A stretch of 49,277 nt of DNA from a virus (Duplodnaviria; Heunggongvirae; Uroviricota; Caudoviricetes): the IMG/VR virus record IMGVR_UViG_2534682330_000007; one strand, written 5' to 3'. Position 1 is the stretch's first letter. Each line of letters begins with the position of its first letter. The translations under genes and the position numbers were made by a program. The notes beneath the pieces were generated by a model. The model did no database searches. It saw only the letters and a list, made by a program, of their open reading frames with translations, and was not told the origin of the DNA. Below, piece by piece: positions 1,331-49,277 of this stretch.

Positions 1331-1430
1331 GCTTTTTTATACTAAGTTGGCATTATAAAAAAGCATTGCTTATCAATTTGTTGCAACGAACAGGTCACTA
1401 TCAGTCAAAATAAAATCATTATTTGATTTC
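1331..1430. other. attL: lambda att core GCTTTTTTATACTAA (1331-1345) followed by P' arm with Int arm-type sites
   Basis: Exact 15-bp lambda core, then GTTGGCATTATAAAAAAGCATTGCTTATCAATTTGTTGCAACGAACAGGTCACTATCAGTCAAAATAAAATCATTATTTG as recalled for lambda attP right arm; int lies immediately adjacent. Confidence 0.9.
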
Positions 1431-2489
1431 AATTTTGTCCCACTCCCTGCCTCTGTCATCACGATACTGTGATGCCATGGTGTCCGACTTATGCCCGAGA
1501 AGATGTTGAGCAAACTTATCGCTTATCTGCTTCTCATAGAGTCTTGCAGACAAACTGCGCAACTCGTGAAAGGTAGGCGGATCCCCTTCGAAGGAAAGAC
1601 CTGATGCTTTTCGTGCGCGCATAAAATACCTTGATACTGTGCCGGATGAAAGCGGTTCGCGACGAGTAGATGCAATTATGGTTTCTCCGCCAAGAATCTC
1701 TTTGCATTTATCAAGTGTTTCCTTCATTGATATTCCGAGAGCATCAACATGCAATACTGTTGGGATGGCAATTTTTACGCCTGTTTTGCTTTGCTCGACA
1801 TAAAGATATCCATCTACGATATCAGACCACTTCATTTCGCATAAATCACCAACTCGTTGCCCGGTAACAACAGCCAGTTCCATTGCAAGTCTGAGCCAAC
1901 ATGGTGATGATTCTGCTGCTTGATAAATTTTCAGGTATTCGTCAGCCGTAAGTCTTGATCTCCTTACCTCTGATTTTGCTGCGCGAGTGGCAGCGACAGG
2001 GTTTGTTGTTATATGGCCTTCAGCTATTGCCTCTCGGAATGCATCGCTCAGTGTTGATCTGATTAACTTGGCTGACGCCGCCTTGCCCTCGTCTATGTAT
2101 CCATTGAGCATTGCCGCAATTTCTTTTGTGGTGATGTCTTCAAGTGGAGCATCAGGCAGACCCCTCCTTATTGCTTTAATTTTGCTCATGTAATTTATGA
2201 GTGTCTTCTGCTTGATTCCTCTGCTGGCCAGGATTTTTTCGTAGCGATCAAGCCATGAATGTAACGTAACGGAATTATCACTGTTGATTCTCGCTGTCAG
2301 AGGCTTGTGTTTGTGTCCTGAAAATAACTCAATGTTGGCCTGTATAGCTTCAGTGATTGCGATTCGCCTGTCTCTGCCTAATCCAAACTCTTTACCCGTC
2401 CTTGGGTCCCTGTAGCAGTAATATCCATTGTTTCTTATATAAAGGTTAGGGGGTAAATCCCGGCGCTCATGACTTCGCCTTCTTCCCAT
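1419..2489 (-). CDS. int: Integrase (tyrosine recombinase), lambda Int
   Basis: 356 aa, begins MGRRRSHERRDLPPNLYIRNNGYYCYRDPRTGKEFGLGRD as in lambda Int; adjacent to att P' arm. Confidence 0.97.
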   Translation of the reverse strand: MGRRRSHERRDLPPNLYIRNNGYYCYRDPRTGKEFGLGRDRRIAITEAIQANIELFSGHKHKPLTARINSDNSVTLHSWLDRYEKILASRGIKQKTLINYMSKIKAIRRGLPDAPLEDITTKEIAAMLNGYIDEGKAASAKLIRSTLSDAFREAIAEGHITTNPVAATRAAKSEVRRSRLTADEYLKIYQAAESSPCWLRLAMELAVVTGQRVGDLCEMKWSDIVDGYLYVEQSKTGVKIAIPTVLHVDALGISMKETLDKCKEILGGETIIASTRREPLSSGTVSRYFMRARKASGLSFEGDPPTFHELRSLSARLYEKQISDKFAQHLLGHKSDTMASQYRDDRGREWDKIEIK

Positions 2490-42933: not shown

Positions 42934-42943
42934 TGGGGTGAAT

Positions 42944-45900
42944 ATGGCAGTAAAGATTTCAGGTGTACTGAAAGACGGCACAGGAAAACCGGTACAGAAC
43001 TGCACAATCCAGCTGAAAGCAAAACGTAACAGCACCACGGTGGTGGTGAACACGCTGGCCTCAGAAAATCCGGATGAAGCCGGGCGTTACAGCATGGACG
43101 TTGAGTACGGTCAGTACAGCGTTATTCTGTTGGTGGAAGGATTCCCGCCGTCACATGCCGGGACCATCACCGTGTATGAAGATTCCCGACCCGGTACGCT
43201 GAATGATTTTCTCGGTGCCATGACGGAGGATGATGCCCGTCCTGAGGCACTGCGCCGTTTTGAACTGATGGTGGAAGAGGTGGCGCGTAACGCGTCCGCG
43301 GTGGCACAGAACACGGCAGCCGCGAAGAAGTCAGCCAGCGATGCCGGCACATCAGCCCGTGAGGCGGCAACCCATGCGACTGATGCTGCAGGCTCAGCAC
43401 GCGCAGCCAGCACGTCAGCCGGACAGGCTGCTTCGTCGGCTCAGTCAGCGTCTTCCAGCGCAGGAACGGCATCAACAAAGGCCACTGAAGCATTAAAAAG
43501 TGCTGCCGCTGCAGAGTCCTCAAAAAGCGCGGCGGCTACCAGTGCCGGTGCGGCGAAAACGTCAGAAACGAATGCGGCAGCGTCACAACAATCAGCAGCC
43601 ACTTCTGCATCCACCGCGACTACGAAAGCGTCAGAAGCAGCCACTTCAGCACGGGATGCGTCGGCTTCAAAAGAGGCGGCAAAATCATCAGAAACGAACG
43701 CAGCCTCGAGCGCCAGCAGCGCAGCTTCCTCGGCAACGGCGGCAGCAAATTCTGCGAAGGCGGCAAAAACGTCTGAGACAAACGCCAGGTCTTCTGAAAC
43801 GGCAGCGGAACAGAGTGCCTCAGCTGCGGCAGGCTCAAAAACAGCGGCTGCGTCGTCTGCCAGTGCAGCGTCAACAAGTGCCGGGCAGGCCTCAGCCAGT
43901 GCCACCGCCGCCGGAAAATCGGCAGAAAGCGCCGCATCGTCTGCTTCAACAGCCACAACGAAGGCTGGCGAAGCCACTGAACAGGCCAGCGCAGCAGCGA
44001 GGTCTGCTTCCGCAGCGAAGACATCCGAAACGAACGCGAAAGCGTCGGAAACCAGCGCAGAATCCTCAAAAACGGCTGCCGCATCGTCCGCCAGTTCGGC
44101 GGCGTCATCGGCATCATCTGCGTCTGCTTCAAAAGATGAGGCGACCAGACAAGCGTCAGCAGCGAAGAGCAGCGCCACGACGGCATCCACGAAGGCAACA
44201 GAGGCGGCAGGCAGTGCGACGGCAGCATCTCAGAGCAAAACTACTGCTGAATCCGCTGCGACCCGTGCGGAAGCTGCTGCTGATCGTGCTGAAGAGATTG
44301 CCGGTGCAGTTGCGATGGAAGACGCAAGCCTTACAACTAAAGGTGTTGTGAAACTTAGCAGTGCTGTTGATAGCACCAGTGAATCGCTGGCCGCAACGCC
44401 AAAAGCAGTTAAAGCAGCCAATGACAATGCGAATAGCAGGGTGCCATCTAACCGAAAAGTTAACGGAAAAGCACTGACTGCGGATATAACATTAACGCCG
44501 AAAGATATTGGTACTTTAAATTCAGTAACGATGTCTTTCTCTGGCGGGGCTGGGGGGTTCAAACTGGCTACGGTTACCATGCCACAAGCGAGTTCCATCG
44601 TTTACATCGCATTGATTGGTGGCGCTGGTTACAACGTCGGTTCCCCACATCAGGCAGGCATTTCAGAACTGGTTCTACGAGCAGGCAATGGAAACCCCAA
44701 AGGAATTACCGGGGCTTTGTGGAAGCGTACAGCCGTCGGATTAACGAATTTCGCCTGGATCAACACATCCGGCGATACATATGATATTTACGTTGAGATT
44801 GGCAATTATGCGACGAGTGTAAATATCCATTGGGATTGTACTGCAAATGCGTCAGTTTCTGTTTATACCTCGCCAACATATTCAGCGAGTAAGCCTTCCA
44901 GCGTTACCTATGGTGTTGTTTATACGATGTATAGCTCACATCAGAAACCTACACCATCAGATATTGGAGCACTGCCAACAACCGGAGGAACAGTTTCAGG
45001 TCCGTTGTCTGTTACAGGTGGATTAACTGGTTCATTGAATGGTAATGCAAGTACAGCCACGAAATTGCAGACGGCAAGATCTATCGGTGGAGTTGTTTTC
45101 GACGGTTCTGCAAATATTAACCTTCCAGGTGTAAACACTACGGGTAATCAGAACACCACTGGTAATGCTGCAACTGCTACAAAACTTCAGACTGCAAGAA
45201 AAATATCCGGTGTTCCATTTGATGGTTCTACTGATATCACTTTAACCGCCGCGCATGTGGCTGCTTTTGCCAGAAGGGCAACGGATACATATGCCGATGC
45301 GGATGGTGGCGTTCCCTGGAATGCCGAATCAGGCGCTTACAATGTCACCCGCTCTGGCTACACCTATATTCTGGTTAACTTCTATACCGGAGTCGGAAGT
45401 TGCCGGACCCTGCAGATGAAGGCGCATTACAGAAATGGAGGTCTGTTCTACCGTTCCTCAAGAGATGGCTATGGTTTTGAGGAAGGCTGGGCAGAAGTTT
45501 ATACCTCGAAAAATCTTCCACCAGAAAGCTACCCAGTTGGCGCACCAATCCCGTGGCCATCAGATACCGTTCCGTCTGGTTATGCCCTGATGCAGGGGCA
45601 GACTTTTGACAAATCTGCTTACCCGAAACTTGCAGCGGCTTATCCGTCAGGCGTGATCCCTGATATGCGTGGCTGGACGATTAAGGGCAAGCCCGCCAGT
45701 GGTCGTGCCGTATTGTCTCAGGAACAGGATGGCATTAAATCGCATACCCACAGCGCCAGCGCATCCAGTACGGATTTGGGGACGAAAACCACATCGTCGT
45801 TTGATTACGGCACTAAATCCACGAATAACACCGGGGCGCATACCCATAGTATTAGCGGGACCGCAAATAGTGCCGGTGCGCACCAACACAAGAGTTCCGG

Positions 45901-46222
45901 TGCATTTGGTGGCACGAACACGAGCATTTTCCCTAATGGTTATACCGCGATTTCAAATCCAAGCGCGGGGATTATGAGCACAACAAGCGGTAGTGGCCAG
46001 ACTCGTAATGCAGGGAAGACATCATCAGATGGTGCTCATACCCACTCGCTGTCCGGCACAGCAGCATCTGCAGGTGCACATGCACATACTGTCGGTATTG
46101 GTGCGCATACGCACTCGGTTGCGATTGGTTCACATGGACACACCATCACCGTTAACGCTGCTGGTAACGCGGAAAACACCGTCAAAAACATCGCATTTAA
46201 CTATATTGTGAGGCTTGCATAA
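42944..46222 (+). CDS. stf: Side tail fibre protein Stf (long form with expanded Ala/Ser-rich repeat region)
   Basis: ATG 42944 gives [69 protein letters not shown] (lambda Stf N-terminus); C-terminal His-x-His repeats (GAHTHS, GAHAHT) typical of Stf/gp37-type fibres. Confidence 0.9.
43290..44270 (+). repeat. Low-complexity coding repeats in stf (reiterated motif around AKTSETNA in an Ala/Ser-rich tract)
   Basis: Motif KTSETNA or SSETNA occurs at least four times in the protein; the DNA is GC-rich and repetitive, which generates many spurious overlapping ORFs in other frames. Confidence 0.8.
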
Positions 46223-46803
46223 TGGCATTCAGAATGAGTGAACAACCACGGACCATAAAAATTTATAATCTGCTGTCCGGAACTAATGAATTTATTGGTG
46301 AAGGTGATGCATATATTCCGCCTCATACAGGTCTGCCAGCAAACAGTACCGACATTGCACCGCCAGATATTCCAGCTGGCTTCGTGGCTGTTTTCAACAG
46401 TGATGAGTCATCGTGGCATCTCGTTGAAGATCATCGGGGTAAAACGGTTTATGACGTGGCTTCCGGCGACGCGTTATTTATTTCTGAACTCGGCTCATTA
46501 CCGGAAAATGTCACCTGGTTATCCCCGGAAGGGGAGTTTCAGAAGTGGAACGGCACAGCCTGGGTGAAAGATGCAGAAGCAGAAAAACTATTCCGGATCC
46601 GGGAGGCGGAAGAAACAAAAAACAGCCTGATGCAGGCAGCGAATGAGCATATTGCGCCACTTCAGGATGCTGTAGATCTGGAGATCGCAACGGAGGAAGA
46701 AACTTCGTTGCTGGAAGTCTGGAAAAAGTATCGGGTGTTGCTGAACCGTGTTAATACAACAACTGCTCCGGATATTGAATGGCCAGTAGCACCTATAGGG
46801 TAA
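46222..46803 (+). CDS. tfa: Tail fibre assembly protein Tfa
   Basis: 193 aa [78 protein letters not shown]; start overlaps the stf stop. Confidence 0.9.
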
Positions 46804-46886
46804 ATTCGTAATGATTACCTAAATACGTTATTCTTTTGTTCAAAAAGTGATTTTGCTATAGGTAGGGAGTATGTTCTTGGATTAAG

Positions 46887-46920
46887 AATAAAAAATCGCC
46901 ATGAAAGAGCTTCATGGCGA
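46887..46920 (-). terminator. Minus-strand intrinsic terminator (TCGCCATGAA-AGAGC-TTCATGGCGA then U-run) with no annotated gene upstream
   Basis: Perfect 10-bp stem; the T-run (plus-strand AATAAAAAA) lies on the minus-strand 3' side, so it terminates leftward transcription from the AT-rich right arm. Confidence 0.5.
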
Positions 46921-47662
46921 GTACATAAACGTACAAAATGTGATGAAAGTAGAGTGGCGTAAGCCACTATATTAAGATGTGACAATAGCGAACAAAAGTA
47001 AATAATATTTTATGGACGTTTAATTGTTAATTATAAAAACTAGAGTGCCCGATATTGTTTATCTTGCTTTAAAATAATGTACTCAAACCAAATTTTTGAG
47101 CTAAAAGCTCAAATAATATAAATGCAATGATAATGTTTAATAAGACAATTAGCTTGCTTTGTATTTTCATTTCGGAATACTGTTAAGTAACTTTGATGAC
47201 CCTAACAATAGATCGGAATTTTCTTAGAGTCAATGGTCACTGTTTTTGTTTGCAAAGCAAATGTTTTGGTGGTTATAAGTTGTCTTAATATAGTCACGCA
47301 TGCAACTTGCTCCATGCGGAGATTAAAGATTGGAATATAACGCGAAGATGGAATTAAATTACATTTGCAATAATCAATTTATTATTACTCAATAATTACC
47401 GATATTATTATTGTAAATTAATCATTAGAGTGCAAAAAGAAATGTAACGGCAAAATAAGAGGACGATAGCTGAGAAAAAAGCGTGCTTTCCCAATCTGGG
47501 GCAAATCACGTCTGAATGACACCTGAAAACAGGTAGTAGCCTCAAGAAGGCTTGGAATATTCTTCTTTAATGTTATGTAATTCATTGATTTTTCGTGTAC
47601 GATTTTAAGACATTTATTCCAAGAAAAATTTTTAACTCTTTGATTTTTCGACTCTGTATCAT

Positions 47663-47724
47663 CGGTCTCGAAAACCGGAGTAGGGGCAACTCTACCGGGG
47701 GTTCAAATCCCCCTCTCTCCGCCA
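47663..47724 (+). tRNA. Partial tRNA: 3' two-thirds of a class II tRNA-Ser(CGA)-like gene (anticodon arm, long variable arm, T arm, acceptor 3' strand, CCA); 5' part absent
   Basis: GGTCTCGAAAACC anticodon stem-loop with CGA anticodon, long variable arm, GGGGGTTCAAATCCCCC T arm, TCTCTCCGCCA 3' end; no matching 5' acceptor strand or D arm upstream. Confidence 0.7.
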
Positions 47725-48306
47725 CTTTATCAATGACTTATCTCCCGACTTCCCGCCTTGCTTTTCCTAAACAGAACAATCGTAGAATATTCTTGAAGGG
47801 TTAGATCGTCACTGTTTTCTGTTCGATACTGTGACATTCAGCACTTGATTCGCTATGGATCTGACAGGAAGGTTTTGAGCGAAAATTTGCAGTTATTCAG
47901 TCGTTTTCTTATCGGTCACCATTATTCTTTTAGACATTGATCCTACAAAGCTGCCGCAAAGTTGGTGGTAGGAACTGAAGTTGCGTAGAGAAGGGGTCAA
48001 TACCCGGAGGCAAACATGGGCTGGCAAAAGTGTAGCGGTATTAGGCGCAGCTATTTAGCCTAGTTATGTTTTATGAAAACTTGATATCATATAAGTGTCT
48101 TACTTATTGGCTGTAAATAAGTTTTTCCTAAGGAATTGTTTCTTGAGTATCATTTGTAACTGTAACGGAATTTATAATCCTTTGCTTTATTGTTACGGTA
48201 TTTTTTATCACACCCTATTTTTAGTGGTTTTTTATACTGAAGTTTGGCAAAGTGAACTTTATATACATATACTTCATCCTGGTTTCAGTTAAATTGGGTG
48301 GATGAT

Positions 48307-49050
48307 ATGGCAACTACATGTTCAGTTATATTGATTTTGGAGTCCTTTGATGTTTATTTCGGAAAAGAGAGTGTGTTTCTGGAGAGAGGTTCATCTGTAC
48401 TTGTCGACTCTAGCTCTAGAGATTTTTTCCTGACATATCCTGAAAGAGTGATAGTGGCGGATTTTGGCGCTGAGTTTATTAGTCGCTATTTGAAAGCTAA
48501 TAACTTAAGGGATATTTCTGATTGTAGGGAATATCCATCTTATTTAAAAATAAACTTTGCTGACTTCAGTTTAATTAAAGGATTAATTAGTTGGGCTAAT
48601 CACTGTGCTGAATACATAGAAATTTTTGATGAGTCTATTGCTTTTACATGTCTCTCTGCATTTTCTTCTGAAAAACAATTTGGAGTATTTCTGTTTGAAT
48701 GTTTGAAAAGCACAGGGGCTAAAGTTAAAACGATTATTCATACGGATTTATCTGCACCATGGCGTCTTAAGGATATATCATCAAGATTATATCTCAGCGA
48801 AAGTTTACTAAAGAGGAAATTGAAAGAAGAGGGGGTATCATTCAGTAAGATCATACTTGATGAGAGGATGCAAATGGCTGAATATTTACTCTGCACTCGT
48901 TGTTATCCTATTAGTAAAGTAGCTAAGGTCTGTGGTTATGCCAGTGTCTCATACTTTACTTATGTATTTAGACGTTATTTTGGTGTTTCTCCAAGTCAAT
49001 ACTCTCAGAGGAGTTCAGAAAGTAAAATTCTTACTCACCAGGGAATCTGA
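48307..49050 (+). CDS. AraC/XylS-family transcriptional regulator (prophage cargo; AppY/PatE-like position)
   Basis: ATG 48307; C-terminal tandem HTH region (ISKVAKVCGYASVSYFTYVFRRYFGVSPSQY) typical of AraC family; AT-rich gene downstream of the tail fibre genes. Confidence 0.8.
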   Translation: MATTCSVILILESFDVYFGKESVFLERGSSVLVDSSSRDFFLTYPERVIVADFGAEFISRYLKANNLRDISDCREYPSYLKINFADFSLIKGLISWANHCAEYIEIFDESIAFTCLSAFSSEKQFGVFLFECLKSTGAKVKTIIHTDLSAPWRLKDISSRLYLSESLLKRKLKEEGVSFSKIILDERMQMAEYLLCTRCYPISKVAKVCGYASVSYFTYVFRRYFGVSPSQYSQRSSESKILTHQGI

Positions 49051-49054
49051 TCAT

Positions 49055-49277
49055 TGTTCTTGCCCCCTTATTTCCAGACAGGGGGTGTATCTTAAGTTAA
49101 CGTTACCCGCTGACGTCGATATTCTCGCGGAGAGCGATAACCCAACGCACTGTGCGGATGGTTTTCATTGTAATGTTCGATCGCCACTGCAAGATTATGC
49201 AATGCCGTTCTTACATTCGGTTTCGGCATGAACGCGATGTAGTCTTCCTTCATCGTTTTCACGAACCTTTCTGCCAT
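49055..49277 (-). mobile_element. IS2-like (IS3 family) insertion sequence, end only; continues beyond the window
   Basis: Terminus reads (reverse complement) TGTCTGGAAATAAGGGGGCAAGAACA, resembling the IS2 right end as recalled; begins 5 bp after the AraC-family stop codon. Confidence 0.6.
49092..49277 (-). CDS. IS2-type transposase OrfB, C-terminal 61 codons only (truncated by window edge)
   Basis: [55 protein letters not shown], the C-terminal motif of IS3-family DDE transposases, closest in memory to IS2 InsD; the leading M in the track is an edge artefact. Confidence 0.7.

Follow-up and report, generated by a model that had tools for sequence, protein, structure and literature searches.

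The moron concept of Hendrix and Juhala covers phage units such as lom and bor of lambda and gp15 of HK97, in which a promoter, a gene and a terminator of atypical base composition stand between conserved modules and are present in one phage and absent from a related one. Prophages of pathogenic Escherichia coli encode Hfq-dependent small RNAs (sRNAs), among them PasB, AgvB and AsxR, and the lambda gal and bio specialised transducing phages carry host DNA from beside the attachment (att) site. Two bacterial proteins are also relevant: YncL (b4598) of E. coli K-12 is a 31-aa stress-induced inner-membrane protein, production of which causes partial, sublethal depolarisation of the inner membrane, a phage-shock response and nucleoid condensation (PMC12542507), and PatE, an AraC-like activator of acid resistance in O157:H7, is the product of z0321 on OI-8 (PMC10877973). 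Here we describe a tract, positions 46804-48306, of a 49,277-nt stretch of tailed-phage DNA (IMG/VR record IMGVR_UViG_2534682330_000007, Caudoviricetes; the whole stretch is referred to as the window), which begins directly after the tail-fibre-assembly gene tfa. The tract is probably composed of a leftward-transcribed moron with a YncL-like gene (46888-~47381), a fossil right attachment site (attR) of the serU type (47468-48058), and the upstream region of a regulator gene (48059-48306), and it is likely that this three-part mosaic belongs to the non-essential b region of a lambda-like prophage integrated beside ybhC, at the attachment site of lambda. The analysis establishes the anatomy of the tract, the family similarity and selection signature of its small gene, that the cassette moves as a module, and where the fossil comes from.

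The comparisons draw on 5426 complete E. coli genomes, a phage collection and 48 IMG/VR loci, and those of the cassette and its open reading frame (ORF) on 55 homologous loci with 35 distinct sequences. The original prediction, made from the nucleotide sequence, had described the tract as AT-rich, which it is (34.5% GC vs 50.2% for the whole window), and had given as its only signals a minus-strand terminator with a perfect 10-bp stem, some smaller hairpins and a tRNA fragment. The terminator and the tRNA fragment are both present, and the list proves too narrow, as the tract also contains a promoter-like site, a 33-codon ORF, 278 bp of chromosomal DNA and the end of an IS630-family insertion sequence (IS). 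The features of the left part of the tract are as follows.

46804-46887, no strand: spacer between the tfa stop and the terminator, found as two diverged alleles and outside the conserved cassette
46888-46920, minus strand: intrinsic terminator, stem 46920-46896 (TCGCCATGAAG/CTC/TTTCATGGCGA), U6 at 46895-46890
46921-46975, minus strand: conserved distal 3' untranslated region (3'UTR), with a hairpin (AGUGGC-UUAC-GCCACU, 46968-46953) and then a 33-nt unpaired U/A/C-rich stretch
46976-47068, minus strand: variable proximal 3'UTR, 93 nt, 33% divergent from locus L007 and with indels
47069-47170, minus strand: 33-codon ORF for a YncL-like predicted single-pass membrane peptide, MKIQSKLIVLLNIIIAFILFELLAQKFGLSTLF; ATG at 47170, TAA at 47071-47069
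47171-47204, minus strand: predicted 5'UTR (~28 nt) and transcription start region, ttccgaaATG at the start codon
47205-47233, minus strand: sigma-70-type promoter-like site (TTGACT, 17 nt, TATTGT; 9/12 consensus matches)
47234-47381, no strand: rest of the shared post-tfa cassette on its upstream side; other prophages cease to be similar at 47349 or 47381 (55 loci)
47382-47467, no strand: junction filler of 86 bp and 25.6% GC, present solely in ~273 genomes with this arrangement

The terminator had been thought to have no gene upstream of it. A gene was overlooked there because it is too short for notice: the 33-codon ORF starts upstream of the terminator and ends 150 nt before it. Its product matches the NCBIfam model NF000537 (YncL) with an E value of 1.3e-5 and 25.0 bits over model positions 1-28 of 30, and as a control for composition none of 10 shuffled peptides matches any NCBIfam family at E<=10. 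Pfam PF28073 (YncL) has a precomputed match, flagged as weak, for an identical product. Alignment with K-12 YncL (MNVSSRTVVLINFFAAVGLFTLISMRFGWFI) is ungapped from Met1 and has 11 identities in 28 positions (39%; 64% positives), and the Citrobacter YncL orthologue lifts the count to about 13/28 (counted by hand). As in the YncL family, the peptide has one central hydrophobic segment between basic residues, here K2 and K6, a 19-residue core, and K26. Relatives beyond this are few. A phmmer search of 1.84 billion representative proteins returned solely the peptide itself and one frameshifted allele, PHROGs contains no family for it, and a literature search found no mention of the peptide string. 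A degenerate DNA pattern for the YncL family finds solely the four alleles of this peptide in IMG/VR, with no wider phage family, and in species-representative genomes solely the chromosomal yncL genes of E. coli and Citrobacter.

The ORF is intact and of the same length in 55 of 55 loci, which have six nucleotide alleles and four protein alleles, and the variable sites are distributed 8:2:13 over codon positions 1, 2 and 3. The most divergent allele (in L007 and L031; 78% identity over the cassette) has 19 nucleotide changes and 13 differing codons, eight of them synonymous and five with conservative replacements (V9I, I15F, F17L, E21K and S30Y). When 19 substitutions are placed at random, five or fewer amino acid changes arise in 2 of 100,000 trials (p ~2e-5), and the ORF stays open in 11%. 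The pattern is a signature of purifying selection at the amino acid level.

Most copies of the cassette are 95-100% identical, and this raises the question of whether the whole tract could be neutral, decaying DNA in which conservation reflects recent ancestry and recombination among prophages. The right two-thirds of the tract is demonstrably remnant DNA, and the region contains many IS insertions and breakpoints, with recurrent breaks across the compared genomes and loci at 46887, 47349/47381, 47468, 47547-47552, 47662 and 48002. However, the alleles at 78% identity diverge non-uniformly, in a way that tracks the predicted functional elements and has the third-codon-position bias, and the cassette stays whole while its neighbours change. 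A neutral origin for the whole tract is thus highly improbable.

The terminator has ten perfect base pairs plus one G.U pair and a 3-nt loop, as in Rho-independent terminators, and lies on the strand of the upstream gene. The T-run (TTTTTT) is on the minus-strand side only and no T-run follows the hairpin on the plus strand; the terminator is therefore oriented, as predicted. Scanning of 46500-48600 gave five terminator-like sites compared with 1.2 +/- 1.1 in shuffled sequences, and the scanner finds this one again at the homologous place in the divergent loci L009 and L007. Changes among the alleles keep or lengthen the stem (G.U becomes A-U, and one allele reaches 13 pairs), and the U-tract is broken (TTTCTT) in several alleles. 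The promoter-like site is likewise found again at the homologous position in L009 (TATTGT) and L007 (TATCGT), such that both it and the terminator are kept in alleles that are 78% and 93% identical to the window; its -35 hexamer is within a conserved island, and the sequence just upstream diverges. At the other end, the spacer next to tfa is 32-36% divergent between the window and L007/L052, the neighbouring terminator block less than 10%, and the break in similarity to divergent loci coincides with the end of the U-tract. The earlier suggestion that a small protein is transcribed leftwards thus gains from three features: the YncL-like ORF upstream of the terminator, the promoter-like site, and the coding-type substitutions across alleles.

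The position of the terminator suggests a different role, that of an insulator at the border of the late operon against leftward transcription from the b region (from sitABCD in other prophages, or read-through from pL/int in this one), with the ORF not expressed. In lambda, clusters of terminators are found at the ends of operons. The terminator acts on the minus strand only and is 84 nt from the tfa stop, and in prophages that carry sit it is the sole intrinsic-terminator-like site found by the scan between sitD and tfa. Insulation does not account for the conservation of the ORF at the amino acid level, for the conserved promoter-like site just upstream, or for the similarity to the YncL family, and for at least 2 kb upstream there is no leftward gene in the window. 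It seems distinctly unlikely to be the whole function of this segment.

We favor the moron, in which the AT-rich segment 46888-~47381, placed behind tfa, is transcribed leftwards as a unit of its own. The sigma-70-type promoter at 47233-47205 would drive synthesis of a ~310-nt mRNA in the lysogen, with the 33-residue peptide encoded first, followed by a 3'UTR of ~150 nt, and with its end at the terminator at 46890. The peptide would insert in the inner membrane and, by analogy with YncL, may act there in the lysogen, either modulating stress physiology or blocking a superinfecting phage; the terminator would also shield the tail genes from antisense leftward transcription.

Several observations weigh against this. 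The score of 25 bits to NF000537 is below the curated cutoff of 35 bits, for a peptide that is short and hydrophobic, and on its sequence the product is for this reason YncL-like rather than a YncL equivalog. A single divergent lineage (L007/L031) and a second, mildly divergent one supply nearly all of the substitution evidence, and a frameshifted allele is present in the public protein collection (P0018; MKIQSKLIVLLNIIIAFILFELLAQKIWFEYIILKQDKQYRAL, 43 aa). Promoter-like matches are not in excess, with nine found compared with 7.0 +/- 2.4 in shuffled sequences, and no Shine-Dalgarno sequence precedes the ORF in the window (acagtattccgaaATG) or in L007 (caatctttcgaaATG). Finally, the terminator is 150 nt beyond the ORF stop and may belong to a separate RNA or serve upstream cargo such as sitABCD. 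As to the frameshifted allele itself, it keeps the transmembrane part and has a replaced C-terminus.

The absence of a Shine-Dalgarno sequence and the long, structured 3'UTR are features that could fit a type I toxin-antitoxin-like module, in which a membrane-depolarising toxin is restrained by mRNA structure or an antisense RNA and either stabilises the prophage or aborts infection. The peptide is small and hydrophobic, and production of its homologue YncL depolarises the membrane (PMC12542507); moreover, in the minimum-free-energy fold the region of the start codon is paired with the conserved stretch of the 3'UTR, recalling the fold-back inhibition of hok, and a plus-strand promoter-like site (46979-47008) is aimed into the ORF. 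The 5'-3' pairing is weak and AU-rich, however, and is missing from the centroid structure, the -35 hexamer of the antisense site varies between alleles and no plus-strand terminator follows it. There is no match to known type I toxin families in Pfam and NCBIfam or to the corresponding RNAs in Rfam, and YncL itself does not belong to a toxin-antitoxin pair. We regard such a module as very unlikely.

The most conserved block of the cassette is not the ORF but the terminator together with the distal 3'UTR. Segment 46888-46975 differs from L007 at six of 88 nt (6.8%), compared with 20.6% in the ORF, 33% in the proximal 3'UTR and 36% in the spacer beyond the terminator. For the 115-nt 3' region the folding energy is -27.2 kcal/mol (z = -5.4 vs shuffles), and three independent allele changes in the distal hairpin all preserve pairing (C to U giving G.U, A to G giving U.G, and one in the loop). 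A plus-strand ORF of 24 aa at 46901-46975 was considered as a source of the conservation and rejected, having four non-synonymous changes to one synonymous and no Shine-Dalgarno sequence; as it gains mainly non-synonymous changes, the constraint on the block acts at the level of RNA (or DNA). This leaves room for a regulatory RNA derived from the 3'UTR, or for an element controlling mRNA stability or translation.

It is possible, and we put it forward only tentatively, that the product is an RNA, as the original prediction had also suggested, with the 88-nt block (46975-46888) acting as a base-pairing sRNA that arises from the 3'UTR or from its own transcription, and with the ORF secondary or the gene dual-function. 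It would begin with a hairpin, continue in a conserved unpaired stretch that resembles a seed (UCUACUUUCAUCACAUUUUGUACGUUUAUGUAC), and end in a terminator U-tail predicted to be able to bind Hfq. 3'UTR-derived sRNAs have a similar architecture, and the greater conservation of the block than of the ORF, the strong fold, the preservation of pairing by every hairpin change, and a constraint that does not come from a plus-strand protein all agree with such a role. Against it, the block has no Rfam match even at E<=1, none of the allele changes is a two-sided compensatory one, and several alleles have the broken U-tract noted above. The sole nearby internal promoter-like site (47030-47002), from which a stand-alone sRNA of ~105 nt could start, was rejected because it is not conserved: TATTAT is TGTTAT in most alleles and the spacing is altered in L007. 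Against the rest of the prophage, the conserved 3'UTR shows complementarity at chance level only (one 11-mer, and one 13-mer that includes an A-run), so that no target within the phage stands out. An sRNA would also leave the coding-type substitution pattern of the ORF unexplained, and it does not exclude the moron with its YncL-like gene.

The block is also not PasB, which was examined because PasB neighbourhoods are enriched for IS009, a family that in the window lies within tfa. A 23-mer derived from the PasB probe is absent from the window even when three mismatches are allowed; PasB maps between a gpI-like tail assembly gene and gpJ, a spacer which in the window is only 60 nt. The IS009 match itself (Rfam RF02111) is full length, at 46565-46763 on the plus strand, with 212.9 bits against a gathering score of 117, and falls wholly inside the tfa coding sequence (CDS). 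In the window this 'sRNA family' coincides with the conserved protein-coding 3' end of tfa, further copies of which survive as decayed pieces in other prophages. Otherwise, an Rfam search of 46000-49277 at E<=1 gives nothing in the tract except partial tRNA-like matches on the serU fragment.

The cassette has 30.4% GC and is present in 828 of the 5426 complete E. coli genomes (about 15%); copies in 12 genomes fall in the 60-80% identity band, and APEC O78 and ECC-1470 are among the carriers. The ORF is unannotated in all 60 records listed, and likewise in the RefSeq, phage and IMG-derived records inspected. Segment 46804-47381 follows tfa in hundreds of prophages, and its next neighbour varies: a truncated ydfJ, sitABCD, a major facilitator superfamily (MFS) transporter gene and then sit, an IS1 at 47552, or the serU fossil. 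The part of the cassette upstream of the promoter-like site (47234-47381) is the most variable, with 61% of its columns variable. In the phage collection three distinct phages (four records) carry the cassette, and in a further 24 records the match is confined to the adjacent tfa end or the tRNA region.

At L008 and L009 (4706-8155) and at L007 (4810-8356) the YncL-like cassette is immediately downstream of the sitABCD iron/manganese transporter operon and on the same strand, and in L007 a Bcr/CflA MFS transporter gene is also present. In L034 (9323-10344) about 1 kb replaces the 86-bp filler and contains two decayed copies of the 3' end of tfa, and in L007 and L031 a copy of the tfa 3' end is also found to the right of the cassette. 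There are hints here that recombination between tfa ends moves the cassette, or that it derives from an old invertible tail-fibre segment. A 12-nt perfect inverted repeat (46966-46977/47283-47294) on either side of the promoter-like site and the ORF was considered as the boundary of an invertible or mobile unit and set aside, as it is not kept in L007 and AT-rich DNA gives such a repeat about as often by chance. Of all copies of the tract, the one in E. coli UK_Dog_Liverpool (L001 1-11924) is nearest to the window, at 99.9%; it follows not a full lambdoid prophage but a P4-like satellite-type element that encodes an integrase, a primase, a fusion of a ClpP-like prohead protease with a capsid protein, and a protein with a tail-fibre domain.

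To the right of the filler the tract has a different origin, and the features there, together with the regulator gene that follows, are:

47468-47662, plus strand: phage-side arm of a serU-type attR, its part 47547-47662 shared with prophage SerU-LTIIb
47663-47724, plus strand: 3' 62 nt of tRNA-Ser(CGA) serU, the former att core, identical (62/62) to positions 29-90 of K-12 serU
47725-48002, plus strand: serU-yodB intergenic chromosomal DNA, 278 bp, collinear with K-12
48003-48058, no strand: right terminal fragment of an IS630-family element, which cuts off the captured serU-yodB DNA; the ends of IS630/ISEc33 copies match it at 92-98%
48059-48306, plus strand: AT-rich upstream/promoter region of the AraC-family gene, with a promoter-like site (TTGGCA, 18 nt, TATACT) at 48244-48273
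48307-49050, plus strand: AraC/XylS-family regulator, YdeO/GadX-like (NCBIfam YdeO, 2.7e-43; Pfam HTH_AraC and HTH_18; RefSeq start at 48307)

The core and the chromosomal DNA form a single 340-nt alignment (47663-48002) that is 97% identical to and collinear with K-12 2043529-2043190, and 47547-48002 matches, at 95% identity, the right end of SerU-LTIIb, a prophage integrated at serU, in which the matching segment sits between tfa and a pseudo-tRNA-Ser and adjoins the host gene yodB. The 3' part of a tRNA is thus followed by its own chromosomal flank and preceded by the arm of a serU phage, and this order of phage arm, tRNA core and collinear host DNA identifies the segment as the attR of an ancestral serU prophage. 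ARAGORN finds no complete tRNA in the tract. The leftmost part (47468-47560, the latter being the end of the query) matches hundreds of E. coli genomes, many of them at about 2.0-2.2 Mb, presumably the serU region, and some part of a query spanning 46700-48400 matches 5424 of the 5426 genomes, the ubiquitous part most probably being the chromosomal serU-yodB segment. In 14 of the IMG/VR loci compared (L014, L016, L017, L021 and others) the left end of an IS1 lies at the equivalent of window position 47552, and several IS1-bearing contigs end a few tens of bases past that junction.

Since this attR junction is found inside packaged phage genomes, host-flanking DNA was presumably captured, through imprecise excision or prophage recombination, and the sequence arrangement suggests that the fossil block entered phage genomes by such an event at serU, much as lambda gal and bio phages form. 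The second idea in the original prediction, that the tract consists of heavily decayed remnants, fits its right two-thirds well, these being the fossil serU attR, the captured chromosomal DNA and the IS630 end. At locus L070 the IS630 match corresponds to the last 33 nt of the transposase CDS and 23 nt past it. Truncation mediated by this element would have fused the captured serU DNA to the regulator cassette. The fossil travels with the PatE-type regulator gene as one block.

The region 48059-48306 accompanies the AraC-family gene in 645 genomes. The larger block 47662-49277 (L062 4660-6275), consisting of the tRNA-Ser fragment, serU-yodB DNA, IS630 end, AraC-family gene and an IS3 fragment, is 99.5% identical to a CP-933H/OI-8-like remnant of O157:H7 strain ATCC 43894, and enterotoxigenic E. 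coli (ETEC) H10407 has the same gene arrangement. The regulator appears to be of the PatE type, judging by its position and by the product description in O157. To the left of the block the sequence of ATCC 43894 is unrelated, and the border, at 47662, is one base before the tRNA-identical core, suggesting a later exchange through the core.

The remainder of the window places the tract within its phage.

1-1284: ybhC-type host gene (NF007822, 727 bits)
1419-2489, minus strand: gene for a 356-aa tyrosine integrase, adjoining the ybhC-type gene
42938-46222, plus strand: side tail fibre gene (1094 aa), up to which the late genes run rightwards
46222-46803, plus strand: tfa, the end of the late genes, directly after which the tract begins

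The ybhC-type left flank and the integrase indicate that the prophage is integrated in the classical attB region of lambda, despite the fossil serU att junction that it carries. To the right of the tract are the AraC-family gene and then the IS3-family fragment. The isolated phages ev099, mEp332 and PhiR70_1 contain the whole 1.7 kb at 98.5-99.3% identity and share with the window the gene order tfa, tract, AraC, IS fragments and attP/int; the tract is therefore part of the b region of real, viable phages. In the side tail fibre gene the N-terminal third (43300-44200, plus strand) consists of long low-complexity Ala/Ser/Thr-rich repeats of ~60% GC and strong AT skew, which yield long spurious ORFs on both strands.

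The statement in the original prediction that the tract has no ORF of 60 aa or more holds for ATG starts and fails when alternative bacterial start codons are admitted, as there are two GTG-start ORFs, at 47595-47804 (69 aa) and 48095-48292 (65 aa). Neither is accepted as a gene: they have no NCBIfam match at E<=1, and their exact sequences are absent from the public protein collection. Two shorter ORFs annotated in related phages were also rejected. The 55-aa ORF at 47418-47585 (ev099 gp28) straddles the recombination junction at 47468 and has no family match, and the 37-aa ORF at 47202-47315 (annotated in PhiR70_1) falls in the segment that varies most and carries a frameshift in L007.

Proteins of fewer than 50 residues systematically escape annotation, and this 33-codon case occurs in the 828 genomes noted above and in isolated temperate phages. 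YncL is its sole recognisable relative and, by that analogy, the phage copy is a plausible lysogenic-conversion or phage-defence factor. A bolder proposal, which we consider unlikely, is that the many lambdoid prophages of E. coli with this cassette (~15% of complete genomes) carry a dual-function gene, encoding both a YncL paralogue that tunes membrane potential and an sRNA released from the 3'UTR. If so, the enterobacterial class of 'small stress membrane proteins' would gain its first member from a phage and the prophages a new sRNA family, and superinfection exclusion, abortive infection or stress dormancy would be possible effects. In the fossil serU junction the sequence itself preserves a rare record of a known virulence-linked regulator cassette, of the PatE type, reaching phages through capture of host DNA at a tRNA site. 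The cassette and the fossil both fit known mechanisms and do not overturn current understanding – the fossil att site is an ordinary prophage scar, if an unusually legible one – and interest would rise substantially only if the peptide or the 3'UTR had a role in phage defence or regulation.

Compared with YncL, the phage peptide is similar in length (33 vs 31 aa) and shares the basic residue at position 6, the 19-residue hydrophobic core with Asn12, and [KR]FG at positions 26-28; like chromosomal yncL, its gene is a predicted stand-alone monocistronic unit with its own terminator. It differs in being prophage-borne, whereas yncL is at the chromosomal patD-ortT locus, in lacking a Shine-Dalgarno sequence where yncL has AGGTGG before its ATG, in having its terminator 150 nt after the stop rather than ~20 nt, and in a C-terminus of LSTLF in place of WFI. 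The cassette resembles the lambda and HK97 morons as a promoter-gene-terminator unit (the promoter being predicted) of atypical composition (30% vs 50% GC) that lies between conserved modules, after the tail genes, and is present or absent among related phages, although its product is far smaller than those of classical morons and its 3'UTR is conserved more than its coding part.

As in PasB, AgvB and AsxR, a short, structured, terminator-ended element is found in intergenic DNA of a lambdoid structural region, and as in PasB neighbourhoods IS009 adjoins it, here inside tfa; however, the tract follows tfa, whereas PasB is between the gpI-like gene and gpJ, and the tract has no match to any sRNA family of Rfam, those of AgvB and AsxR among them. 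The fossil shares with lambda gal and bio specialised transduction the presence of a phage arm, an att core and adjacent host DNA in a phage genome, and it is collinear both with the real serU-yodB locus and with the attR of SerU-LTIIb, a genuine serU prophage. It departs from gal and bio in that the captured host DNA is 278 bp long, non-coding, truncated by IS630 and fused to a regulator gene of foreign composition, and in that the present phage uses another, lambda-type, integration site, the capture event being one that we infer. Finally, the regulator of the window falls in a block that is 99.5% identical to the CP-933H-like remnant of ATCC 43894, where the regulator locus probably corresponds to that of PatE (z0321, OI-8/CP-933H of O157:H7); the gene itself is outside the tract, and its upstream region alone is inside.

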